The notes under the pieces are model-generated. The model made no database searches and was not told the DNA's origin. It saw only the letters and a program-made list of their open reading frames with translations. From contig NW_027122668.1 of NCBI RefSeq assembly GCF_030686945.1, positions 252,099 through 270,311 of the forward strand: 18,213 nucleotides of DNA, in the 5' to 3' direction. The DNA comes from Centruroides vittatus (Eukaryota). The position numbers and the translations under genes were made by a program. This document shows positions 2,022 to 17,806 of this stretch, in pieces (position 1 is the stretch's first letter; each line of letters opens with the position of its first letter).

Positions 2022-2390
2022 TTGACAAAAAACAAACGTGACTGCTCGACAACAAAGGCATATATTTCAATTGGCAATAAAAAAAACCAATGTTCTGTAA
2101 GACAAATAACAGAACATTTGCCAGGTTGTGTTTCAAAATCAACTGTTGATTGCACTTTGTTGAAATCTGGAGAAGCTAAATTCAAAAGAGTGAAGAGAAG
2201 ACCTTCTCTTAAATCATACCGCAAGGAGGCTAGGCTCACCTGGGCCAAAAATCATATGATATGGGACAAGGAATGGACCAAAGTTATTTTCAGTGGGCAA
2301 AAGAAGTTTAATTTATACAAACCAGATGATTTTAAATATGTTTCTTATGCATGGAGGTGGTGCTATGAGAAAAAACAAGAGCAAAATTAG
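2022..2390 (+). pseudogene. Tc1/mariner (Tc1-like) transposase fragment covering the middle of the protein, from the helix-turn-helix region to the start of the DDE domain. It is truncated and decayed.
   Basis: The translation ...VSKSTVDCTLLKSGEAKFKRVKRRPSLKSYRKEARLTWAKNHMIWDKEWTKVIFSGQKKFNLYKPDDFKYVSYAWRW... matches the conserved Tc1 pattern ISxSTV...KKPLLS.K.K.ARL.FAK.H..W....W..V.FSDE.KFNL.G.DG...VWR. No catalytic DDE portion follows, and there are stops just upstream and downstream. Confidence 0.7.
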
Positions 2391-2789: not shown

Positions 2790-3650
2790 AAAGTAACGAT
2801 AGCGAAGATTAAGATTATTACGTTATAGTCACAAAAGAAAAAGAGTAATTTCATCAACGAACTAAGTATTTCTAAAGAAAGGTCAAATTTGAAAATCGAA
2901 TGTTCCAATATTGTTTGATTTTCACGACGTGTTCTGATTATATCCTTTGATTTTCATCGAATGTTCTAAAGAAGAAAGGTCGAGAAAAACCGAACTAATC
3001 TGTTTAAATTTGAAAATCGAATGTGTTCTAAAATATTACTTTTTTTCTTTTTTCTTTTTTTCCAGAGCCCGTAAATCTTGCACGTCGCTTTCTCTTGTTC
3101 TCCATTGTTACTTCACACTATCATCGTTACTTAACACTTTGGTACTTAAATTTGGTACCCTAACTGTGTACCAAATTTCAACTTTCAACTCCTAACCGTT
3201 TTAGCAAAAATTAAGATTATTATGTTACAGTCAACCTTACCCATTTTCACAGAATGCAAGAATTGGGTCTCCCCTTTTCAGATTAATTACATAATTTTTA
3301 GATGGGTCTAAAAATATATTCAATTTCCTGCAAAAATGAAAAAACCGCATCTGCGTCTTGCACATCGCTTTCTCTTAACAATTCCATTGTTACATAACAC
3401 TTCCATTGTTGACATTTCCATTGTTACTTGACACTTCCATTGTTACTTGACACTTCCATTGTTACTTGACACTTCCATTGTTGCCATTGTTACTTGACAC
3501 TTCCATTGTTGATGGAAGTGTTAAGCCTTAATCCTGTCCCTCTCCCCCGTGGAGAGGAATTTCGAAAAATCCCTTCTTAGTGTGCGTTCTTGTGACATAC
3601 CCTAACTGTGTACCAAATTTCAACTTTCAACTCCTAACCTTTTGGGCTCT
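2790..3650. repeat. Composite tandem repeat block of about three degenerate units. Shared unit starts (gcRaaRattaagattattaYgttaYagtc) are at ~2797 and ~3200. Shared unit ends (cttgcacRtcgctttctctt ... ccctaactgtgtaccaaatttcaactttcaactcctaacc) are at 3075-3196 and 3365-3641. A short sub-repeat ttgaaaatcgaatgttc occurs three times within 2888-3027.
   Basis: Copies were aligned by eye. The 40-bp block ccctaactgtgtaccaaatttcaactttcaactcctaacc is identical at 3149-3188 and 3600-3639. Confidence 0.6.
3384..3511. repeat. Minisatellite of about seven contiguous 19-bp units (ccattgttacttgacactt and variants). It is an expansion inside the second copy of the 2790-3650 repeat and ends in a perfect 11-bp-stem hairpin aacacttccat-tgttg-atggaagtgtt.
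   Basis: Units were read directly. The first copy of the parent repeat (3100-3135) has only about two units, so this is a copy-specific expansion. There are no spacers, so it is not CRISPR-like. Confidence 0.8.
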
Positions 3651-3763: not shown

Positions 3764-4578
3764 TTAAAGAAGTATATCAGTGTGTGTGTCTGTATTCAGG
3801 AATTTTCTCACAATATGACATGTATTCAATATAGTGGCCTTCTGTAGTGTGATGTATGTGTTTCTATTCAATTGTAATGTGCCCAGGCTTTTGTGTAGTG
3901 TGTGTGGTATGACACCTGTAGAGGAGAGAACAACAGGTACAATGAGCACCCTATCCATCCTCCACAGATGCCTTATTTCGTGGGCGAGTTCTGTGTACTT
4001 GCTAATTTTTTCAGTGCATGCGTTTTGTATATTGTGAGTGTTTGGAATGGATATGTCTATAATGTATGTGATTTTATTGTGTTTGTCAATGAGTGTGATG
4101 TCTGGTCTGTTGTGGTAAATTGTTTTATCTGTGATTATGGCTCTGTCGTAGTACATTTTGTGCGTGTTGTTTTCCAATACTGTCTGTGGAATGTATTTGT
4201 AGTATGGTTCGTGGATGTCTACTAATTTGTGTTTCTTTGCAAGCTCTTGGTGTATTATATTTGCTATTTGATTATGTCTGTGTAAATAATCTGTCTGTGC
4301 CAAGAGCTTGCAACCAGAGGTGATGTGTTGTATAGTTTCTGGCATGATGTGACATTTTCTGCATGTGTCATTTGTGAGTGTTGTATCTTTGAGTATGTGT
4401 TTTCTGTAGTTTTTAGTATTTATGACCTGATCCTGTATGGCGATCATGAATCCTTCCGTCTCCCCAAAGAGGCATCCCTGAGCTAACCAGCTGTTTGACG
4501 CAGTTTTGTCAACAAAATCCTGGGCCAGATCATAAGGATGCCTGCCATGGAGTGCCTTTCGAGCCCACGATTGCTTAA
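3764..4578 (-). pseudogene. 5'-truncated non-LTR retrotransposon (LINE) ORF2 C-terminal fragment. It comprises the 227-aa ORF plus about 44 further in-frame codons upstream, an ~87-bp 3' UTR and a (TAA)n tail.
   Basis: The translation contains the C-x2-C...ET..H....C zinc-knuckle-like motif (DTCRKCHIMPETIQHITSGCKLL...HRHNQIANIIHQEL), followed by ...HNRPDITLIDKHNKITYIIDISIPNTHNIQNACTEKISKYTELAHEIRHLWRMDRVLIVPVVLSSTGVIPHTLHKSLGTLQL.... Both are conserved in C-terminal regions of many invertebrate non-LTR ORF2 proteins. The reading frame stays open upstream to ~4578 (...WARKALHGRHPYDLAQDFVDKTASNSWLAQGCLFGETEGF-MIAIQ) and then runs into a poly-N tract translated from the (TTA)n microsatellite. 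Confidence 0.6.
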
Positions 4579-4751: not shown

Positions 4752-5184
4752 ACTAAAATGTTTTTTTTTTGCCATGTCCAATCACCAGAAACAGCAGTTC
4801 TCCATTGCAGAGACAACCTTTTAGGTTAATGTTACCCTTAGTGCCAAGATGGCGACTCATCTCTGATTCCAGCAAGGAAACAGTGGGATGCACGTTCTAA
4901 CCTAACCTAGCCTATTCTAATAAATTACCATAATTATCAGCAACCAAATTATTAGAATAGGTTAGGTTAGGTTAGAACGTGCATCCCACTGTTTCCTTGC
5001 TGGAATCAGAGACGAGTCGCCATCTTGGCATCAAGGGTAACATTAACTTTAAAAATATAATTTCACTTAAAAATGGCTGACATATTCACACAAAAAATTA
5101 CATAGAAGAAACTAAAATATCTCTGCAATGTAAGACTGTTGTTCCTGGTGATTGGATATGCTGAAAAAATGAAGACATTTTAGT
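4752..5184. repeat. Larger foldback with imperfect inverted arms at 4752-4813 and 5120-5184 (core ...actaaaatg...atccaatcaccagRaacaRcagtYYtMcattgcagaga). Its loop contains MITE copy 1 (4826-5046).
   Basis: The reverse complement of 5120-5184 aligns to 4752-4813 with about 85% identity by eye. Confidence 0.55.
4826..5046. mobile_element. MITE family A, copy 1. It is a 221-bp near-perfect hairpin with ~100-bp arms and a ~25-bp loop, and TTAA at both ends (4826-4829 and 5043-5046). Each arm carries three TTAGG/CCTAA units.
   Basis: Left arm gttaatgttacccttagtgccaagatggcgactcatctctgattccagcaaggaaacagtgggatgcacgttctaacctaacctag.... The right arm is its reverse complement. Two further copies lie at 6031-6251 and 13628-13848. 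Confidence 0.8.
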
Positions 5185-6030
5185 ATTTTCTACATATTTT
5201 TAAAAATTATTTTATATTAAATACTAATAGATAGGCAAGTAGATACTGTAGAGTGGGTTATATGAAAGTTTTATTTTCATTCTTGCAGTTTTCTGTCGGG
5301 TATGTGCCATTGCGGGTCATCCACCTGAAATAATGGTGCATTTTGAAGATTATGAATCAAGAGGTTCATGTTATATTTCAAGCAGGGTTAGACTTAATGA
5401 AAATTTTACTTGTTTATTGGCATTACAATATTTTAAAATGTCAAACTCTACTTCAAAAAAATAAAACTTTTGTCTTTTATAGTAATTTACATTATAAAAG
5501 AAATTATTTTTTTAATAAAATCTCTTAACAGATGGCATTCTATGTATTTTAACTTTGAGCTCCTACCTTGAAATTATCTTAGTGTTTTTAGTATTATTAT
5601 TTAAGTTTTACATAATAGTATAACTGACAATTATCAAACTTCCTTCCTGGTTCCATTAACTTCCAGTTCGAGAGCTTGGGAAGGTTGTGCAAGAACCTTG
5701 CCACCGTCTTTCCTAAAGTTTTGATCTCTATCACACTATTGACACCTATTACGGTGAAATGTCGGTAAAACGAAATTGAGGGGACCATCAAAATATTTTC
5801 CTTATATTGAAACACAATCAAAAATATAAGGATAAAAGAAATTTATTGATGATAAAAAAAATTGCTTACATTTTGAAGTAAGAAGGTTTTAAACATGCAA
5901 TTTGTCTATTAGTATTTATATGGAACAAAATTTTATATTGTTAGAACGTAAGTTATATTAAATTAGAATAAAAATTATTCTGTAATAAAAAATTATCAAA
6001 AAATACGAGCGAATGACTAAAATTAACAGG

Positions 6031-6251
6031 TTAATGTAACCCTTGGTGCCAAGATGGCGGCCCGTCTCTGATTCCAGCAAGGAAACAGTGAGACGCACGT
6101 TCTAACCTAACCTAGTCTATTCTAATAATTTGGTTGCTAATAATTATGGTAATTTATTAGAATAGGCTAGGTTAGGTTAGAACGTGCGTCCCACTGTTTC
6201 CTTGCTAGAATCAGAGACAAGCAGCCATCTTGGCACCAAGGGTTACATTAA
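6031..6251. mobile_element. MITE family A, copy 2. It has the same 221-bp hairpin with TTAA at 6031-6034 and 6248-6251.
   Basis: About 90% identical to copy 1 by eye. The arms contain ctaacctaacctag and ctaggttaggttag. Confidence 0.8.
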
Positions 6252-6599
6252 CCAAATAACAATATAGTAGTACCGATTAGTTGAAATCCTGCCTCTTCCA
6301 TTGTTGTTTCTGCTTGAAGCCATTATTTTCTGGTAAAAGAAGTCTAATTTTTGTGTGTTGTTTCTTTAATCAAGTTTTTTCGATGAAATCTAGTACTGTG
6401 ACAGCATCCGGTAGGCCATCGGGCACATCTTTTTGTTTAATTCCTTTTTGCATGTTATCTAATATTTTATTAGTCTCTTTCAAAGAAAATTGCTTTTGTT
6501 TGTTTTATTTTTCTCCATTTTTTCTCATAAACTTAAAAAGAAATAAACTGTAGAGTAATAACATTACAACGAAACCATAACTTAGGATTAAAATTAATA

Positions 6600-7021
6600 C
6601 AGGTATACCTCGACTTACGTCCCTCTCGTAACTCAAGGTCCTGAGTTTACGTCGTTTGTCAAAAAAGTATATAGAAAAATAAAAATCAAAGTTTAAGTCA
6701 TTTTATTCGACTTTAAATCCGTCCGCCACAAATATTGAAGTCGTAATATCACTAGAAAAGCGTTAAAAGCACATAAAATCATATTAAAATATGTACATTT
6801 ACAGTAAATGTTAATATAATCATCATAAATCCTAGAGAACGAAACATGAAAACATCTGTGTTTCTGTGTTGTCTTATTATTTAGCAGTCTTTAAGTGCTC
6901 ATTATTGGCGTTTAGTTATGACGTAAGTCGAAACTACGACTTACGTCGTAACTACACGAGTAAATTCGACTTACGTCGCCTCTCCTGGAACCAATTACCG
7001 ACGTAAGTCGAGGTATACCTG
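6600..7021. mobile_element. Tc1/mariner-type (Stowaway-like) MITE of 422 bp. Its ~22-bp TIR is CAGGTATACCTCGACTTACGTC, and TA is duplicated on both flanks (6598-6599 and 7022-7023). Four subterminal copies of GACTTACGTCG, in alternating orientation, lie at 6919-7010.
   Basis: The TIR and the flanking TA were read directly. Subterminal repeats gacgtaagtcg, cgacttacgtcg, cgacttacgtcg and gacgtaagtcg are present. A TA TSD together with a CAGG terminus is the established Tc1/mariner signature. Confidence 0.7.
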
Positions 7022-7630
7022 TATTGTGAGACTGTTTAACATAATATTCATCATTTACTAATAATGAATGATTTATGCATTTATAAATTTCATCGTAATG
7101 AAACTATTCGTTTGTAACGGGAAGAATTTGTATTAAGTTAAACTGAAATACTTGTTATAATGATATTTGTTAAACAGAAACATTTTTGCATTGAGCTTAA
7201 TAGGAAATTGGTCCTTTGCTTTTTAAATTTCTCTCAGGCTCTGTCTGAGAGGATTCACGCACAGTTCTATGCATTTTTTGCAGATCTAAATGAAAGCCCA
7301 TTCTCATTTGTAACAAAATCAAGTAACAGTTTTAATATCCAAGAAGATGAATGGGGAAGCCCAGTAGTAGTAGAGTTTAAGTGTAATTTTTCAATATGAC
7401 ATCTAAAAAGCAGAGAACTGTGTATTAAGGAGTTGGTTGATCGATATCTGGGAGGATTCTTAAATATTTTTCAGAATATATTTTTAATTTTAGGTATTAG
7501 TAGAATTTTACCAAACAGATGTAATGTGTACATGATACCTTAAACTCTTGTCAGGAACAGCCTTATGCTAGCAAAATATAAGTATTTTTAGTATTTTGTT
7601 GTAAAGAGGTAAACACTAATTTTAAAATAC

Positions 7631-7736
7631 TGTTGATCTAGTAATAGTCTCTTTAATCCGAAAAATATATTGACGGTAGACTGTCTCACAGTCTACATAT
7701 ATTTCTCGGATTAAAGAGACTATTACTAGATCAACA
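7631..7736. repeat. 106-bp hairpin with 40-bp arms (one mismatch) around a 26-bp loop that itself contains a smaller palindrome (gtagactgt-ctc-acagtctac).
   Basis: Left arm tgttgatctagtaatagtctctttaatccgaaaaatatat. Right arm atatatttctcggattaaagagactattactagatcaaca. Confidence 0.75.
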
Positions 7737-7853
7737 TATAATCCAGCTACCATAGGAAATTTAATTAAATACTATTGTTTAGGATATTGTTTCACAAAAA
7801 TTTAAATTAAAAGCTGACAATAGCACTTGCACGACTTTCCCAGAAAATTATTG

Positions 7854-7906
7854 AACTTCCTTCCTGGTCCTCTTAACCTCCTGTTAAGAGGACCAGGAAG
7901 GAAGTT
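7854..7906. repeat. 53-bp palindrome aacttccttcctggtcctcttaac-ctcc-tgttaagaggaccaggaaggaagtt. Its left half resembles 5636-5666 (aacttccttcctggttccattaacttcc).
   Basis: Read directly. A probable related copy lies at 5636. Confidence 0.65.
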
Positions 7907-9587
7907 TAATCATTTTCAAATATACAATAGAAAATTTTTAAATAATAATGGAAAATATTGATTATTTGATATATTGATACAACATTTTCCAATATCAGTA
8001 ATATCGAACATCAATAACAATATTAAATATTAAATTGCATACTTCTAGCCCTTCTGTTTACAAATATTAATTATTTTGTTACAATTATCCAATATACTAA
8101 TTTGTATAACAAACCAGTCAAAAAAATGTAAACTGATGATGGCATAATGCCGAAATGCATATTTATTAAGAGGCCGTAAATCTGAATAAGCCTTTTATTG
8201 TAAAAATAGTCGAGCATTGCATTTTAATGTTAAATAAAAACTAAAATTTGAAAATCTGTCTCCGCATATGATAAGCCTTAAAAAAACATTATAGGCCTAA
8301 AAGGATAATTGTAACAAAATAATTCATAATAATAATAAATAATTAAAGTATTTTCTTCCAATTAGTTTTTATATATTGCTGCGGCTCTGTTTTCCCACTG
8401 TGTCATTCATGGTGCAGGGGTTAGCGTCTTTACCTATCAGACGGAAGGTTTCCGGTTTTAACCTCTTTGATGTGGTTCTTTTTTTTTGTGTGTACGTTCT
8501 CCTGGTCTGAGAACACGTGTTAATTCGTTATCATTTACATATTTCAACCATGTCCGCACAGTATATAATCGCGAGCTCTCAGGTTGAGGGCAGTTATTAT
8601 CTAGCACTGCAAGCTGCAGTGATTGTACTGTGGTGTTCTATAAAAGTGAGGCAGTACGGTCCGCGAATGAAACGTACAGAAAGGACTCTGCAACGACTAC
8701 AATAATAGACAATGTCCCTTTATTCCACTTAGAACAAATAAGGTTTTTTTTTGATAAGGAATCCCAACTGACTTTTTTATGACTTACAAATTGAGGTGTT
8801 TCACACAGGGGACTCTGTCCCTAAACAAAGCACAATGGTGTGTTATTTTTCTAGCACGTAACAATCAGTTCCTCGTAATTGCGTGACTAACCTGACTTAA
8901 ATCTAGCTTAAATCTAACTTAATATTAAGGAAAAATAAGAAAGATAGGATAATGGGAAGGTAGAAGAAATGAAGGAATGATTCACCCGGAGTTTTCTCTT
9001 TCTTCGGCGGATACGTACTTTGTGTATGATCTGGGTTCGACGATAGTAGCTTTCTTCACTATCCTTTCTTCTCTCAATTATCGGGGTTCTCTAATATGCC
9101 GGTCTCTATATTTCGGTTCCTCACTAGACTATCGCCAACTTCTTTCCTCTCTCGGAAATCACGATTGAGCCTCTCTCTTTTCGTCCTTCTCTCTTCGTGT
9201 CTAGTCAAAAAGTGACTCCTCTCTTAGCCACTTTTTCCCCAGGCCACACTACCTGCTATTGTCCCTACCGATTCTCGGAACGGCTAATCCAGCCCCATGG
9301 CGATAACGGTCATCTTGGAAAGTTTAATAAGAAAGAATAGACAAAGGAAAAAAGAGGAAATTGCAAAAATAATATAGGATTATAACTATATACAATAAAA
9401 TATATATATACAATATGGCCGACGGTCACAGTACGTTCTCTGAGTGAGTAAACATCCCTTTGTGTTCCTAAAGACTGGTTGCCGTTTGTCTCTGCGACAA
9501 TATTTATCATGATAAATTCTGATTTAACTAGTTTTACATTAGTTTTTACATCTCTTTTAAATTAATTCATAGTCCTTTCTTATGTTT

Positions 9588-9657
9588 CCGGCATGGAAGT
9601 CAATGTAAAAACAAAAATACCTGATGCTGGTGTTTTTATATAGACTTCCATGCTGGC
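9588..9657. repeat. 70-bp imperfect hairpin with ~26-bp arms (ccggcatggaagtcaatgtaaaaaca / tgtttttatatagacttccatgctggc).
   Basis: Read directly. There are three mismatches. Confidence 0.6.
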
Positions 9658-9725
9658 AACATATGCAAGATCAGAGTGAATTAATTTAGAGAATAGTTCC
9701 AGTTTTAGTAATAATTTGATACTTA

Positions 9726-10770
9726 CAGTAGCGCATCGATTATCCAACCCCCGATTAACCGTCACATCGGTTAACCGACCACGTTCTAGTCGGCAAATTC
9801 AAATGTCTGCTAGTGATGTGGCGCTACAATATTTGGCTATGTCTTGGCTACTTTAATATTATTTTTGTTAAATTTTTGCACGTTTTAGCTGGAAACACTG
9901 GCTCGACCACAAAAGGGAGGCCAGTATTTAAACCAGGCTTAATTTTCTATTTTTATCTTTATTTTTGTTTCTATTTCTTCTTTGAAACCATGTTTTCTTG
10001 ATTGTTGGACTATGAACCCAAAGTTGAGTTTTAATTAAACACTTGGCTTTATTTCCATCTTTATTTAGTTGATACGTGCCATTTGCACGTTTCGGGCATA
10101 GAGCCCCTCATCAGTCAACTAAACAATACAACAATTAAAATACACTACACTTAGTTACACAATTAAAATACAATTACACTAAGTATTTTACCAAACAAAA
10201 TCAACACAAGGTATGGTTCTTACCATTATCATATTCGATCTGCCATGCATACAAGGTTTAAACTCAGTCGACACATGTATCTTATTTTTTCTATAAACGG
10301 AGTAATCCCTTTTACACACAATATTTATATCTGGTATAAAAACAATGTATAAGAATATAAGCTGTATATAATAAGTTATTTTTAAAAAATGTAAAAATTC
10401 TTTAAAAGCACTGACAGGAAGTAGATTAACCAATTACCTGTTGTACTGTACATAATCTTTTGCTTATTTTACAATATCCAGTTACCAATAATTCCTTTAT
10501 TTTTATATTTATTTTGTTCAAAATAAAGAAATAATTTTTAACGATACAATAGCGATGATTATTATTTTTAAAAAGAATTTTGTTAGGCTTAACATCGATG
10601 AAAATTCAACGCGAAGTAGGTTAATAGCGATATACTTATATACTAATTGTATGGGATATACTAATATACTATACTAATAATATATTTTTTCATATTTTTT
10701 GGTTATCCGTTTTTTCAGTTATCCGACCAACCCCAGTCCCCAGTTGAGTCGGATAATCGATGCTCTACTG
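9726..10770. mobile_element. Non-autonomous Tc1/mariner-like DNA transposon, family B, element 1 (1045 bp). Its TIR is CAGTAGCGCATCGATTATCC / GGATAATCGATGCTCTACTG, flanked by TA (9724-9725 and 10771-10772). It appears to be an internal-deletion derivative of element 2.
   Basis: The 20-bp TIRs (one mismatch) and both TA flanks were read directly. The 3' ~230 bp (10540-10770) align to 12820-13026 of element 2, sharing ttaggcttaaMatcgaYgaaaattcaacRcgaag, ggttatccg and cagttatccgaMcaaccccagtYcccaRttga. The 5' stretch caaaataaagaaataatttttaacgatacaat at 10513-10545 matches 11797-11828. Confidence 0.7.
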
Positions 10771-10829
10771 TATTTCGGAATTAAGCTTTTTTCCCTTCTT
10801 ACAACATCTATGTTTTTTTACTCCACCAA

Positions 10830-11540
10830 AGACAAAAAGTATAATGATAAATGGAAAAGATACACTGCATCAATTTGTGATGATATGGTGACAATGAGTA
10901 ATTCAGAAAGAGAAATGAATCATATGCTTAGTAAACTTCACAAGAACATACGTCAATGGGGTTTAAAGATAAACATTAAGAAAAAAGAGGTGACGGTAGT
11001 AGAAAAGAACACTGAAAGGACAAAAGCTAATGTCAGGATTGACAGAAAGATAAAATTTCTTACTTGTTCTGCTCCTATTGAGGGAATGAAGTCAGGGAAG
11101 ACAAGATATATAAAGGATAGGACTCATGAAACAAGCTTTCCAAAACAAAAGAAATCCACTAATGTCAAAATACCTGAGTATGGAAGCAAAGAATTTGTTT
11201 TTGTATTTACTAAGACATTCCTCTGTTGTATAGAAGTGAATGCTGGACACTAGGAAAGCAAGAGATGATGTGTCTGGAGGGAGCAGAAATGTGGATATGA
11301 AGGAGAGTAAACAAAATAAGCTGGACTGAACAGAAAACAAATGAAACAATTCTGACGGAAGTGACAGAACAAAGGAAGTTAATACAGGAAATAGGGAAAA
11401 GAAAAATTAAATTTATAGGTCATATTGTTAGGCACAATAATTTCCTGAAAACGATCCTTGAAGGAAGAGTTCTCAGAAAGAAAGGAAGAAGACCAAAGAA
11501 AAAGTATCTTGAAGAAGTCAATACTTCTGTGGAATTCTGA
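10830..11540 (+). pseudogene. Decayed non-LTR retrotransposon ORF2 fragment (reverse-transcriptase C-terminal part plus conserved tail). It is frameshifted and has internal stops.
   Basis: The ORF at 10699-11253 (its first ~45 codons lie in the family B 3' TIR and are not coding) contains the RT motif region ...SICDDMVTMSNSEREMNHMLSKLHKNIRQWGLKINIKKKEVTVV.... This is a degenerate form of the conserved YADD and GLKIN..KTKVM reverse-transcriptase motifs. Further downstream, in other frames, lies ...WTLGKQEMMCLEGAEMW...KISWTEQKTNETILTEVTEQRKLIQEIGKRKIKFIGHIVRHNNFLKTILEGRVLRKKGRRPKKKYLEEV. This matches a C-terminal tail, WTL...E..L.AFEMW..RR.L.ISW...TNE.VL......R.L...I..RK..F.GH..R........EG...GK..RGRP, that I recall from many invertebrate LINE ORF2 proteins. 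Confidence 0.6.
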
Positions 11541-11605
11541 AGTTATTATGAATTAAAAGGACAGAGAGCATTGGTTGCAGTGACAAGGCAAAACCTTTAG
11601 TAATA

Positions 11606-13026
11606 CAGTAGAGCGTCATTTATCCGAAAGCCGGTCAACCGAAAGCTTTCCAGTCGGACTGTGTCGTGCTGAATCAAACGTTTTTGATACTAGATTAACT
11701 TCTAAAGTATAATTTTTTTTGTTTTTATATTTTTCAATATATTTTATTTTGTTTGTACAAAATAAATATATTGAAAAATAACAAAATATACAAAATAAAG
11801 AAATAATTTTTTAACGATACAATTTGCGTTTTTCATGAACTATAGAGGGCGCTGCATTTTTTACAAAATGGCTGCTTCATCTGGGTCGTTTGTAACTAGT
11901 AATGTAAAATTAATCATATATTACTGTCCGATATAATGATATATGCTGCTTGTAGCTGTTTATCGAGAAATTTTATAGTAGGAGAACAATTATTGCTAGC
12001 GGGACACTGTCATTATGTGGTATCGAAACAAGTGAGAGAGATCATTCTATATATATTTGTGCCCTTTGTGTTAAAAACATCAGCTTTGACATTGTCATAT
12101 CAGGGCTGGATTTACAAGTAAAAAGCTACGTAAATTGTTGCTTAGGGCTTCGACTTTCAAGGGGCCTCAAACATTTGTACAAAAAAAAATTAAAGTCGAA
12201 TTTTGTAATAAACATTTTTTACAAACCAACAATATATACTTTACTTTTTATTTTGTGTAGTATTTCATTAATTTTTTCTAAGAATTAACATAAAGATTTT
12301 TAATGGAATGAGTATAAAAATTTAATTAAATTCAGTTATAAAACAGAAGACTAGTGAAACCTCACATCTTTTTCTTCCAATAACGATATTGAATCAGAAA
12401 GATAGTCTGATTTAATTCTTTTATTTTTATGATTGACTTCTAAAATTGTGAAGGGTTGGTAAGGGGACTTACAGAGTTCAGCTTAGGGCTTCGAAATGCT
12501 TAAATCTCCTATCTTTGTTTAAAGTTGGACAATCAGGAAACCGGCAATTCTTAACAGTTTAATCCACTCTTTCAGAATTCGGAGAAGCTCATAAATATAA
12601 CTGACCGATTTCCGAAGAATCATCTGTTTTTCGTGTGGGAATAGACGAAAACTTATATTAGGCTCCCGTAAGTCTTTGAAATTGTAATTTGGAACGCAAC
12701 AGAAAGCTTTGCTTTTTCTATTGCTATTCATCTTTACTGCTGATAATAGACAAGGATTAAGCAAACGACCCAGATAGAATAGTTTTGTTTTTAAACACCA
12801 GAGGGCGAGCATTCGGTGAAAAATGCGAATAGCCTCAATTATTATTATAAAAATTTTCGTTAGGCTTAAAATCGACGAAAATTCAACACGAAGCGACACA
12901 CAACGGAGAAAATTTTCAACATTGGATAGGTTAATATATTTTTTCGTACATAATTGGTTATCCGAAAAAATCAGTTATCCGAACAACCCCAGTTCCCAAT
13001 TGATTCGGATAAATGACGCTCTACTG
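11606..13026. mobile_element. Non-autonomous Tc1/mariner-like DNA transposon, family B, element 2 (1421 bp). It has perfect 23-bp TIRs CAGTAGAGCGTCATTTATCCGAA, flanked by TA (11604-11605 and 13027-13028). TTATCCGA subterminal motifs occur, twice direct plus once inverted at the 3' end and once in the 5' TIR.
   Basis: The TIR was read on both ends, and the reverse complement of the right end equals the left end exactly. A TA flank plus a CAGT terminus is the established Tc1/mariner signature. The element has no transposase ORF. The 126-aa ORF at 12519-12899 (minus strand) is low-complexity and overlaps the conserved 3' repeat region. Confidence 0.75.
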
Positions 13027-13268
13027 TAGATAGAATCTCTCACCAAAAATGAAAATTATTACAGGAAATATGGTATTACTGGGAGACTCAGACTTTATGG
13101 CACTTTCCTTCATTTTAAACATTTTATGTAAAAAATATGATTACAAAATATGCATGAAAATTGTTAAATTGTTTGACAATCTTTCTTGCATAACCATTTG
13201 TAATGTTAGAAAGATGATCGACACACTAGCGTTGATAATCTTTCTATTATTACAATACAAATTATTAA

Positions 13269-13627: not shown

Positions 13628-13848
13628 TTAATGTTTACCTATGGTTCCAAGATAACAGCTCATCTGATTCCAGCAAGGAAACAGTGGGGACGCACGTTCT
13701 AACCTAACCTAACCTATTTTAATAATTTTGTTGGTAATAATTATGGTAATTTAATAGAATAGGTTAGGTTAGGTTAGAGCGTGCGTCCCCACTGTTTCCT
13801 TGCTGGAATCAGACGAGCTGCCATCTTGGAACCATAGGTAACATTAAC
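13628..13848. mobile_element. MITE family A, copy 3. It has the same 221-bp hairpin with TTAA at 13628-13631 and 13845-13848 and (CCTAA)3/(TTAGG)3 in the arms. Its outer arm ends are more divergent (gttccaagataacagc versus gtgccaagatggcg in copies 1 and 2).
   Basis: Read directly and aligned to copies 1 and 2. Confidence 0.8.
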
Positions 13849-14314
13849 CGAATTTATATTATTTTTGTGTGATAAATATTCAATTACAGTGGAGTCTGCC
13901 TGTTTTAGTCATTTACGACATTTGCTTACACTGATAACAATAAATAGTGTACAGTACATAAATGAGACTGATTACAATTAGTGGAATTTTTATTTTTATT
14001 GACAATAAAAGGACATCTTAAAACAATTATAAAATGTGTAACTTGAAGATTTATTAAATATAATTTTTATTAATTAATAATAATTCATCCAAAAAATATA
14101 TTTTCAATAACAAATGCCAGCAGTTTAAACTACTGCACTGTGAACAAATAATGATTTTAACAATAAAGCAGTAGCTAATGATTGCATGTTTCAACCACAT
14201 GTTGAGACTGATATAGATGGCATTTACTTCAAGAAAAAGAATTTTTTTCTAAGATTTCTATCATGTCTTCTTGAAGCTCATAATAAATTGACATGGATTG
14301 GTGATATTCATTCC

Positions 14315-15595
14315 TTATGGACAGTATGTTTTCAATTTTGTGTGCTTTGCCTTCCAGAATAATTCGGCTATATGTCTTTCTGAATAGTCAGTCATTTGAT
14401 TCAATGATTCCCAAGCATTTTCAGGTAGCTGAGCAAGATTAAGGCTATGAAAGGCACAATGTGCCAACTGAAATATAGTCTGCTTGAATGTAGGCTTGAG
14501 ATCCATGCATTTTCCCACTTACGTTCATTGTTCCATCATATCTTCGACCATATAGATAGGTGTATCAATACCATTCTCTGTATTCAATGCAAAAATTAGA
14601 TAGCAGTTGTAAAATTTTTCTCCGTGCAGTCTGCCAGATACACAGCTTACAAAACTTTTTTATTGTGAATTTGTTGCCTTCTCTTATATAATATATAATG
14701 CAGATATATGGAAGGTTGCTCCAAACCAAAAATGTCTGACGTTTCATTAGCTAACAGTGAGAAAGTTTAGATTTATTAATACTGTGTATCAACTTTTTCG
14801 ATTGTTTGTTTTTTGTGAAAACTAGAAATCATTTTGGATTCTGTTACTTGTGTGTAGAGCATTTTTTAATAACTCGAAATGTTTTTTATTGGGTCATCTT
14901 GTAGTTCAGTGCCAGAGAAGAGCCTAGAAGTTGCTATTATTTACAGCAAGCACTTCAACTGTTATTTGACTATCTTTTTAGTCCTTCATGGTTAAACTCA
15001 TTCTGCAGAAGTACTGTCTGTTCAAAATTCTAACTTTCTGTTATGGTCATCAGGACACAATGCCTGCAGTAACTGCAACTTGTACAGCTTTGTATTTGGA
15101 CATTTTTTAAGAACACACCATACTGTTGTTTGAGGAATTCCAAGTTCAATGCTTGTCCATGTTGTGGATCATAGGGCTTTTTTTTTGATACACCTCGGAT
15201 ATGCTTGACATTTTCATCTGGCATTCGAAGACAACCAGTGCTTTTCCATTTGCACATGCAGCCATCTTCTAAGAATTATTTTAAATTTACTTATGACAAG
15301 ATGGTTGTTTGTTGAACCAGTGGTGAAATTCATGTTGCACTTCAACACTTCACAAACTGCGGCACAAAAAATGACTTCACTTATGATACCATTTTCTTAT
15401 AAACAAGAAACAGTGCTGCTGATTGACACTGAAATTAACTTCTAGGTGGGCTTTTAAAACTTTGAACCTTCCTCTATCAATGATATGCAGAATGTGTTTC
15501 CATCTCTTAGTTTGAAATAAAAATTCAAAATATTCTCCATCTTTTTGAATAACCATGTATAAAATTACATAATAAAGCAAAATTAAATTATCCAA
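14315..15595 (-). pseudogene. Possible decayed coding remnant. Four short minus-strand ORFs (72, 75, 60 and 67 aa) lie with none on the plus strand and are joined only through frameshifts. The product is cysteine-rich (C-x6-C...C-x2-C-x2-C-x2-C). Identity is unknown; it could be a TE-derived transposase fragment.
   Basis: The evidence is strand bias of ORFs in the track, plus my own translation of 15258-15376 in a second frame (VIFCAAVCEVLKCNMNFTTGSTNNHLVISKFKIILRRWLH), which overlaps the start of the next ORF, so the two are linked by a frameshift. The motif ...FQTKRWKHILHIID... weakly resembles the piggyBac transposase 'TN/KRWpm..f..lld' region, but this is not convincing. GTG and TTG starts are used in the track, so the ORF boundaries are artificial. 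Confidence 0.3.
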
Positions 15596-16791
15596 TAATA
15601 ATGCATATTACATTAGTCAAAAATAGATGGAATTAGATGAAAAAAGTGTTTTTCAACATCCAACAAAAACATTTGTTTCAAGAAGGTCACCTTTGCTGTC
15701 TTATTGGTGATGTTATAGAAAGCACTTCAAACCACAGTGATAATTTATGGCTTAAGATAGCTTTCTGTATCATGTCTTTCCATGATCTTTTCTGCTAGTG
15801 GAGTGTTGACCACTATCATTTTGCATCTGCACATTTCGTCTTGTCTTTTTTATTGAATTTTTAGCAGTTGTTTTCCTCAAGTTGTCCAATAAAAAGTTTG
15901 TTTTGTGGTCGTATGGGATATATTAGATCTCAAGTTAGTTATTTTCTCTTGTGTCTGTCCACTGGCATATGTCTTGTCTGTCTCAAGAATGGGATTAGAT
16001 AGATGAAAGTCGAGACCAGACATGGAAAGCTTAGGGGTAGGAAGTGCCAATTAACTATATACAAACTTCTGATTTGCACTGAAAGTCACATTATTTCAAT
16101 TCAAAAATTTTCCAATGAATGAGTTTGGATAGATGACCAGAATGATTCTACTGTTAATGGGAAAAATATGATGTATGGGGCAAGACACGACTAAAATTGA
16201 GAGCATTGTGACAAAAATTTTAAACCCGTCACAATAAATAATTGCTTGTTTTAAAATTTTTTTTCGTAGACAATAAATTCATCATTTACTCTCATGTATT
16301 GCATTAAAATTTCAAGTAAATATTTAGTTTACCATATTTTTTAAAATGATTTAAGTGGCCATTTTTTGACGTCATCTAATGTAATAATACATTATTTATA
16401 AAATAGTTTTAAAGGTTTTATTTTACAAGAAAGCATGCAATAACTTCAAATACGGTATATTTAAAACTAAATCAAGCAGTGCTGGATTTCTTAAGATATA
16501 ATTGTTCAATTTTTCAAATAATTTACTTATAAATGTAACAACTGAGTTAGGTTTTGTGGGGTGCTTTCTCGTTTGGTCATTTGAAAACATCCACATTTGG
16601 GGGTCAAGATTGATGCCCTCTCTGTTCAAGAACTGACCTTATTTAGAACTATTAGTAACCTTTCAACTGTTCTTATAGATAAAGGGTTGGAATGAGATAT
16701 GATCAATCAAGTGCGTAAAATGGAATTGGAAAAATTACTTATATAATTTGAAACTAGTGACACTGTAATCTTATGTCAAATTATTCAAAGT

Positions 16792-17018
16792 AATAGCGAG
16801 GTTGAGGCCAAAGTTTTAAATGCGAAAATGTGTACGTCAGACGTTCGGCGCCGCTTTCCTGTAAGCCTAGAAGTTTGACAATCGCGTTTGGAATGTCGAG
16901 CATGATTCCACTGACTTTCCAAACGCCATTGCCAAACTTCTAGGCTTACAGGAAAGCAGCGCCGAACGTCCGACGTACACGTTTTCGCGTTTAAAACTTC
17001 GGCCTCAACCTCACTAAT
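16792..17018. repeat. ~225-bp palindrome or foldback that is GC-richer than its surroundings. The arms are ~100 bp (16792-16893 and 16916-17018) around a ~22-bp centre. Most arm mismatches are CpG-to-TpG/CpA transitions.
   Basis: The left arm gaggttgaggccaaagttttaaatgcgaaaatgtgtacgtcagacgttcggcgccgctttcctgtaagcctagaagtttgacaatcgcgtttggaa was compared with the reverse complement of the right arm. The differences are ccAaag/ccGaag, aTgcg/aCgcg, aaTgtg/aaCgtg, tcAgac/tcGgac, agCgagg/agTgagg and gcCgc/gcTgc. Confidence 0.75.
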
Positions 17019-17806
17019 TTGACCAACAGCATTATCTACCTCTGGATCCAAGTTGTGTTAATAATTTGTTTGAAAAATTGTGATATTATAGCCTAAGAAA
17101 TTTGGCATTGTCGGACTTGAAAATATTTTATTGTAACTTTAAGTTTAAGCTTGAAATTAATTTTCTAGGTTTGATGGAGCTGAGGATTTGATTTTCCATG
17201 TTTGTGTGATTCCAAATTCTACAACATAAAATCTTGAGAAATGGAAAATTCAACTGTGATGTTAAAACAGTGTAAAAATATTTATGTTAATTCAAACTTT
17301 TACATAGTAGATGTGAGTATCAAATAATATTTTTTTAAATCATAGATTAAACTATTAGTCCGGTGGTTCTCAATTATTGCAAATTCACTCCAATGTACTA
17401 CAACTTATTACTTTATTTAGAGACAATTCTATGATAACTATTTTATTAAAATTCATTAGTTTATAGCTTTATTGTGTCATGAGAATAATGAATGTCACAA
17501 TGAATTGCTTATTGTGAGAATAAGAAGGCACAGGGTCACTACCGTAATTGCCACTTACACGCCAAGTTGGTAAAACTTGCCCACTTCGTCTTTCGAATGG
17601 CTTTTTCAAGTGGTGAGGGAGGTGAGCAAGTCGACAGGCATCATTAGATAGACAGGAGACACGTTATACAAACAAAAAGGAGTTTATTATATACTTAATC
17701 TAATATACACGAGTGTACATAGAGAATTAATTGATTAAATGCGGTTAACATATAAACTTAGAGGGAACAGTGATCAACCTAATCGCTATGCCTCATGCCT
17801 AACCTT

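Follow-up and report, generated by a model that had tools for sequence, protein, structure and literature searches.

A palindromic, probably foldback/MITE-like insert whose arms differ mainly by CpG transitions in a CpG-depleted, transposon-rich region

The DNA analysed here contains, at positions 16794-17016, a near-perfect palindrome of 223 bp, and the account of it that we judge probable, with some reservation, is that of a non-coding, foldback/MITE-like insert that is decaying at the local CpG rate, with deamination of 5-methylcytosine as the likeliest cause. All positions are those of the window, by which we mean the whole stretch of 18,213 nucleotides that was analysed. The palindrome in itself is of little weight, as it would be an ordinary small insertion and repeats are well known to decay at CpGs. 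Its arms, on the other hand, offer a built-in view of the local mutation spectrum that needs no alignment, and this view agrees with the window, in which CpG transitions are approximately 3-fold above other C/G transitions and CpG depletion is patchy. It is this strong and patchy depletion that is left as the only mildly interesting residue.

The palindrome consists of two arms of 104 nt, which are 91% complementary to each other, and a short centre:
16794-16897, unstranded: left arm of the palindrome, 104 nt, 47% GC, 9 CpG
16898-16912, unstranded: centre, non-palindromic, GAGCATGATTCCACT, 15 nt, the loop if the palindrome folds
16913-17016, unstranded: right arm of the palindrome, 104 nt, 50% GC, 10 CpG
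This arrangement is far above chance expectation. The palindrome is predicted to fold as one long hairpin, as single-stranded RNA or as single-stranded DNA, with predicted energies of -169.5 kcal/mol for RNA of the plus strand, -186.8 kcal/mol for RNA of the minus strand and -107 kcal/mol for DNA; the fold z-scores were -21 to -29, and none of 200 shuffled sequences folded equally well. The original prediction had described a GC-richer palindrome of about 225 bp at 16792-17018, that is, within 2 nt of the boundaries given here, and both its existence and its composition were borne out: the palindrome has a GC content of 48% with 20 CpGs, compared with 33% GC in the window, and the adjoining 50-bp bins have 24-30% GC with 0 or 1 CpG each. 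The CpG observed/expected ratio (O/E) of the palindrome is 1.53, and approximately 1.9 when six lost CpGs are restored. When the left flank was aligned, with gaps, to the reverse complement of the right flank, the ends of the palindrome were unchanged and no extension was found; a 9-nt flank match, GTCAAATTA, which had been spotted by eye beside the palindrome, received no support from this alignment. Because the step in GC and CpG content is sharp at both ends, and symmetric, the palindrome can be read as an inserted unit, and because each arm differs in composition from the DNA on either side, it would be the whole palindrome that was inserted rather than a local sequence that was duplicated.

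The palindrome is non-coding. The one ORF that runs through it is not a gene:
16785-17051, minus strand: fortuitous 88-aa ORF spanning the whole palindrome, no homologues, no Pfam domain
Searches of protein sets of 5.8 billion and 1.84 billion sequences returned no homologues of this ORF, no Pfam domain was found in it, and two weak matches from an exhaustive HMMER search were both spurious ORFs over unrelated tandem repeats. From its sequence features, the palindrome is probably a foldback/MITE-like insert and thus a putative mobile element. It is short (223 bp, below the approximate limit of 800 bp for MITEs) and non-coding, and it carries terminal inverted repeats, with arms that reach the ends of the compositionally distinct unit. 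Insect MITEs and the palindrome are alike in having terminal inverted repeats, no coding capacity, the potential to form a stable hairpin and a TE-rich, non-coding setting, and the size of the palindrome falls within that of silkworm MITEs (223 bp versus 210-567 bp; 17 BmMITE families, PMC2997013; iMITEdb, PMC5199201). However, the inverted repeat accounts for 93% of the palindrome (104-nt arms), whereas the terminal inverted repeats of silkworm MITEs are 8-59 bp long (PMC2997013), and the palindrome is CpG-rich with 48% GC, whereas silkworm MITEs are AT-rich (PMC2997013). This GC-rich composition, unlike that of typical AT-rich insect MITEs (PMC2997013), counts against the MITE reading. The DNA fold energy also differs, at -107 kcal/mol compared with 39-66 for silkworm MITEs.

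When 17 x 17 combinations of boundaries were compared for a target-site duplication, the only candidates were TA, TAA, AAT and TAAT, of 2-4 nt, which are expected by chance in AT-rich flanks, and no duplication of 7-10 nt was found; the TA at the candidate boundary belongs to the palindrome itself. Elements of the hAT type have termini of the form 5'-YARNG...CNYTR-3' and generate an 8-bp target duplication. The ends of the palindrome, TAGCG...CACTA, fit this terminal pattern, but the 8-bp sequences on either side of it, CAAAGTAA and ATTTGACC, have just 1 of 8 positions in common, so that the defining duplication is absent and a hAT origin is not supported. In Drosophila Foldback (FB) elements and hpRNA loci, a short centre separates long inverted repeats, and the arms of FB elements are built from tandem subrepeats. 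The palindrome shares with them the long inverted repeats, the short centre and the potential to give long dsRNA; however, FB elements are much longer, and Tandem Repeats Finder (positions 16700-17100, minimum score 30) detected no tandem subrepeats in the palindrome, for which reason membership of the FB class was rejected. As for the foldback or MITE-like element put forward in the original prediction, the non-coding nature of the palindrome and its very stable predicted fold fit it, while only 2-4-nt duplication candidates were found and the arms have no subrepeats.

In the 18 kb of the window there is one copy of the palindrome, and this single visible copy counts against the insertion reading, in which multi-copy status and mobility are assumed. 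A CpG-free 22-mer present in both arms and a terminal 23-mer with one degenerate CpG position found no true copy in metagenome, prokaryotic-genome and viral contigs; the sole metagenome match was a bacterial coding region resembling ribosomal protein bL21, in which no palindrome is present, and was dismissed as chance. The full text of the literature, searched with sequences of the element, contained nothing beyond chance 12-mer matches to primers. The single copy, together with duplication candidates of only 2-4 nt, would also be consistent with a palindrome that is not mobile and that either arose in place as an inverted duplication, by fold-back priming or break repair, or represents an endogenised viral terminal hairpin, for example of a densovirus. 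A short asymmetric spacer such as the one seen here is typical of fold-back repair products, and parvoviral termini are GC-rich hairpins of approximately 200 nt, which the palindrome resembles. We nevertheless consider such an origin very unlikely. Neither arm resembles a copied native sequence, as both are foreign to the flanks and the boundary is symmetric. The palindrome showed no similarity to plasmids, phages or viruses, its CpG-restored cores included; four exact 21-23-mers, CpG-restored ones among them, had no match in 2.9 million viral contigs, although exact scans are insensitive and provide a weak exclusion; and the open segments within approximately 2.5 kb of the palindrome contained no viral gene remnant and no Pfam domain. 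Furthermore, palindromes built in this way occur three times elsewhere in the window and are clearly multi-copy.

These three palindromes belong to a MITE-like family that is unrelated to the palindrome at 16794-17016:
4819-5053: copy A of the palindromic MITE-like family
6029-6253: copy B of the same family
13635-13841: copy C of the same family
The copies are approximately 207-235 bp long, with arms of 94-108 nt at 93-94% identity, an asymmetric centre of 19 nt and ends of the form GGTTAATGT...ACATTAACC, and copy A is inverted relative to copies B and C. In architecture they are nearly identical to the 16794-17016 palindrome, but there is no sequence similarity between them. They are also CpG-poor, with 6-8 CpG-associated positions per arm compared with 26 in the palindrome, and they are demonstrably multi-copy (3 in 18 kb), while the palindrome is present once in the window. 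Each copy carries (TTAGG)2/(CCTAA)2 motifs that are like insect telomeres, a feature that sets this family apart from the palindrome. The presence of three palindromes of one design in 18 kb implies that the genome carries such elements in multiple copies. Since few CpGs remain in them, their arm differences are mostly non-CpG transitions; however, the alignment showed that one CpG, in CTCGTC, is gone from exactly one arm in each of the three copies, and this loss of the same CpG in every copy is independent evidence for CpG decay in situ within the arms of palindromes.

When the arms of the 16794-17016 palindrome were compared, 9 mismatches were found, of which 6 are transitions between CpG and TpG/CpA, 1 is a non-CpG transition and 2 are transversions:
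16797/17013, 16810/17000 and 16821/16989: CpG-TpG/CpA transitions at arm positions 3, 16 and 27
16829/16981, 16839/16971 and 16852/16958: CpG-TpG/CpA transitions at arm positions 35, 45 and 58
16878/16932: A/G transition between the arms, non-CpG
16883/16927: transversion between the arms, which also removes a CpG
16894/16916: transversion between the arms
About eight mismatches had been counted originally, six of them CpG transitions; the total is corrected to nine here and the six are upheld. If CpG is taken as the ancestral state, the derived, non-CpG state lies in the left arm at 4 of the 6 sites and in the right arm at 2. The enrichment for CpG among the arm differences is modest but significant. 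CpG-associated arm positions differ in 6 of 26 cases and other positions in 3 of 78 (Fisher p = 0.007), or approximately 23% compared with a background of approximately 4% at ordinary sites. A fairer test is restricted to C/G positions, among which 6 of 25 in CpG and 1 of 28 in CpH context differ (one-sided p = 0.035), giving a CpG:CpH transition rate ratio of approximately 5.8 with a 95% interval of 1.2-66; both p-values are optimistic, because the feature was picked by eye and post hoc, and the counts are small (9 differences).

A preserved hairpin has to be weighed as a source of this spectrum. If the palindrome were kept as a functional hairpin-RNA gene, as a source of hpRNA, siRNA or miRNA, transitions that preserve pairing as G-U might be tolerated, and its predicted RNA hairpin is indeed very stable on either strand (-169.5 kcal/mol on the plus and -186.8 kcal/mol on the minus strand); furthermore, 5 of the 7 transitions would become G-U pairs on the minus strand. 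However, a split of 5 versus 2 is indistinguishable from chance, the stem of 104 bp far exceeds that of a miRNA precursor, no homologous locus was found that would show conservation, and such a function would not account for the concentration of the changes at CpGs. At the gathering thresholds, the palindrome matches no Rfam family. The sub-threshold matches were to generic miRNA hairpins (25-30 bits, compared with gathering thresholds of 61-100), the best being mir-489 at 30.3 bits (threshold 61) and mir-122 at 29.1 bits (threshold 70), and they were set aside, as any long hairpin yields such matches. We regard a functional hairpin-RNA gene as extremely unlikely.

It could also be argued that methylation is not involved at all and that the excess is a sampling accident among 9 eye-picked differences, perhaps helped by a mild, methylation-independent context effect, in arms that are CpG-rich (one quarter of their positions). 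The palindrome alone, with its post hoc p-value of 0.035 and a lower bound of 1.2 for the ratio, would allow for this. However, other sequences in the window point in the same direction. Nine other repeat pairs, the tally being limited to independent pairs, differ at 13 of 35 CpG and at 16 of 120 CpH positions, which corresponds to a ratio of approximately 2.8 (1.45-5.1; p = 0.003), and when the palindrome and these pairs are pooled, the ratio is 2.7 (1.5-4.9; p = 0.0008). Furthermore, the deficit of CpG across the window (O/E 0.67) is matched by an excess of TpG (1.16) and CpA (1.14), while GpC is at 1.03. The depletion is strong but patchy, with O/E values in successive 2-kb bins of the window of 0.36, 0.65, 0.47, 0.91, 0.94, 0.72, 0.80, 0.23 and 0.81. 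The block with the lowest value, 14001-16000, is directly to the left of the palindrome; in the 2 kb to its left CpG O/E is 0.30 and that of TG+CA 1.38, and in the flanks within 500-1000 bp of the palindrome CpG O/E is 0.23-0.62.

Because the other repeat pairs, the window and the flanks all show CpG decay, the bias toward CpG transitions is not specific to the palindrome, and nothing therefore indicates methylation targeted to repeats over and above a regional or genomic rate of decay. This bears directly on the original prediction, which had taken the arm differences as a sign of 5-methylcytosine deamination in a repeat that is or was methylated in the germline. The spectrum is dominated by CpG transitions, as expected of deamination, but the bias is not peculiar to the palindrome, and the claim of methylation specific to the repeat is not supported, as the bias is common to the surrounding DNA and the flanks are more CpG-depleted than the palindrome. 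A CpG O/E near 1 in the family had been named as an outcome that would speak against methylation; since the palindrome's O/E of 1.53 reflects its youth and not a lack of decay, this yardstick is not usable. The CpG deficit with excess TpG/CpA is present in the window and the flanks but not in the palindrome itself, as would be consistent with a young insert. Silencing of transposable elements, in which the palindrome itself would be a specific target of germline CpG methylation and would owe its CpG divergence to it, is in our view decidedly unlikely. The palindrome does have the highest point estimate in the window (approximately 5.8-fold), and the patchy depletion, with bins ranging from 0.23 to 0.94, is compatible with targeting element by element. 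However, the interval for the palindrome (1.2-66) fully overlaps that of the other repeats (1.45-5.1), flanks that are not repeats are even more CpG-depleted (O/E 0.23-0.44), the palindrome has retained a CpG O/E of 1.53, and in published work TE methylation is low or lost in Holometabola (PMC7343188) and intergenic methylation was not seen in a butterfly (PMC12518556).

The reading of an insert decaying at the local rate would work as follows. A CpG-rich unit, with approximately 13 CpGs per 104-nt arm and a CpG O/E of approximately 1.9 on arrival, may have been inserted into AT-rich, CpG-poor and transposon-laden DNA, and its arms would have diverged in place since they were last identical. 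C/G positions in CpG would undergo transitions approximately 3-6 times faster than other C/G positions, and unrelated repeats in the window, as well as the DNA around the palindrome, would be subject to the same raised rate. The most likely cause would be deamination of 5-methylcytosine in a region whose germline DNA is, or formerly was, methylated. Insertion by transposition, divergence of the arms in situ and methylation as the cause are what we infer from this pattern. As the same rate acts on the surroundings, the bias would reflect the local or genomic mutation regime and nothing that is targeted to repeats. The decay of vertebrate Alu and L1 elements is comparable, in that CpG is converted to TpG/CpA in excess and can in principle indicate age, but there copies are compared with a consensus and here two arms of one element with each other, and the CpG rate ratio is approximately 3-6 here compared with 5-20 in vertebrates (PMC12994199).

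An internal molecular clock had been expected of the arms. It is computable but very coarse, as it depends on 3 non-CpG differences: 3 of 78 positions correspond to a divergence of approximately 3.9% (95% range 0.8-11%), and with the Heliconius rate of 2.9e-9 per site per generation (as quoted in PMC10048334), the arms would have been identical approximately 7 million generations ago (range 1.4-19), provided that the palindrome was perfect at the start and that its arms have not undergone gene conversion with each other.

As a yardstick for CpG content, we used six lepidopteran loci of 20-28 kb around homologues of an intact ORF in the window:
3764-4447 (open to 4609), minus strand: intact 227-aa retrotransposon ORF, no Pfam domain, 229 homologues
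The best named relatives of this ORF are all from Lepidoptera (58-66% identity), and in a tree it falls within the lepidopteran copies, with which it shares a mean identity of 61%, compared with 62% between those copies. Taken by itself, this one mobile element would make Lepidoptera the likeliest order for the host; a second search, with a decayed reverse-transcriptase fragment, gave no significant matches. At the lepidopteran loci the homologues of the 227-aa ORF lie downstream of RVT_1 ORFs, and its sequence suggests a conserved C-terminal module of a non-LTR retrotransposon that has no annotation. In CpG content the ORF ranks lowest in its family, with an O/E of 0.39 compared with 0.46-0.98 and a TG+CA value of 1.51 compared with 1.04-1.24. 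The six loci, including two that are as AT-rich as the window, have CpG O/E values of 0.85-1.11, and 2-kb bins with values of 0.5 or lower make up 3 of 9 in the window and 0 of 65 in the loci (Mann-Whitney p = 0.0004); the window is therefore more CpG-decayed than the lepidopteran DNA sampled at these six loci. Possible explanations for the difference are an atypical host, a methylated compartment such as a gene body, or a host that is not lepidopteran.

Published data on insects bear on the same question. TE methylation is low or lost in holometabolous insects (PMC7343188), intergenic regions of a butterfly have no CpGs that are more than 10% methylated (PMC12518556), Helicoverpa genes have a mean CpG O/E of 0.99 (PMC5844299), and de novo C>T mutations in silkworm are not biased toward CG (PMC10048334), while CpG context is not analysed in the Heliconius mutation-rate paper. 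For Lepidoptera, these publications speak against methylation of intergenic DNA and TEs (PMC12518556, PMC7343188) and, in silkworm, against a CpG bias of new C>T mutations (PMC10048334), and to that extent against the reading preferred here. In a survey of 108 species, the CpG>T ratio was below 1.5 in species lacking substantial methylation, and noncoding CpG O/E tracked this ratio (PMC12994199). The pooled interval obtained here (1.5-4.9) lies above that range (PMC12994199). For the view that the arm differences are a sampling accident, the silkworm pedigree data (PMC10048334) and the CpG O/E of 0.85-1.11 at the six lepidopteran loci are favourable. In contrast, the independent repeat pairs point the same way as the palindrome (p = 0.003), the bins of the window lie below the 65 lepidopteran bins (Mann-Whitney p = 0.0004), and the lower limit of the pooled interval, 1.5, coincides with the upper end of the range of unmethylated species (PMC12994199). 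On balance, we consider a sampling accident unlikely.

A bolder reading is that the host is a lepidopteran or a close relative in whose germline the intergenic, TE-rich DNA carries CpG methylation or did so until recently, with the palindrome as a fresh "reporter" caught in the middle of its decay. The loss of 6 of 26 CpG copies over a background of approximately 4%, and a mosaic of 2-kb blocks at 0.23-0.47 and at approximately 0.9, would suit such a reading, which we hold to be conceivable but doubtful. If it were true, intergenic methylation in Lepidoptera would contradict the picture of Holometabola as methylated in gene bodies only. Likewise, if the host is a moth or butterfly, the regional signature would be unexpected in view of published methylomes and pedigree data, while all of the signals would be ordinary if methylation in the host, genome-wide or of gene bodies, covers the region.

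The window is a mosaic of transposon remnants, among them a Tc1-type HTH, reverse-transcriptase fragments and two elements with TACAGT-type termini:
2022-2390, plus strand: decayed Tc3-type transposase HTH, E = 5e-6, below the Pfam cutoff
10699-11253, plus strand: decayed reverse-transcriptase fragment, E = 1.2e-5, below the cutoff
9724-10772 and 11604-13028: two stretches, each with inverted termini of 25 nt at its ends, TACAGTAGAGCGTCATTTATCCGAA, matching at 92-100%
16477-16525, unstranded: weak outer inverted repeat, left arm, which begins CAGTGCTGG and matches the right arm at 37 of 49 positions
17062-17110, unstranded: weak outer inverted repeat, right arm, matching the left arm at 37 of 49 positions
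7631-7736: short inverted repeat, 40-nt arms, 98%
7843-7917: short inverted repeat, 35-nt arms, 94%
6596-6621 with 7000-7025: short inverted repeat, 26-nt arms, 100%, 378 nt apart
9575-9669: short inverted repeat, 39-nt arms, 85%
about 3374-3516: short tandem array with a unit of approximately 19 nt, CTTGACACTTCCATTGTTA-like
The outer inverted repeat, which encloses the palindrome, has an alignment score of 40 (shuffled sequences, 25.2 +/- 3.3 with a maximum of 37), and its start, CAGTGCTGG, is one that we take to resemble the terminus of C. elegans Tc1; no TA duplication flanks 16477-16525/17062-17110. This repeat may represent the ends of an older element that hosts the palindrome. The short inverted repeats at 7631-7736, 7843-7917, 6596-7025 and 9575-9669 may be additional small foldback or TIR elements. 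The termini of 9724-10772 and 11604-13028 are of the TA+CAGT type, which is typical of Tc1/mariner-like elements, and the right ends of these two stretches share a further direct repeat of approximately 58-97 nt. A diverged, partial copy of the tandem array at about 3374-3516 is located near 3111-3153.
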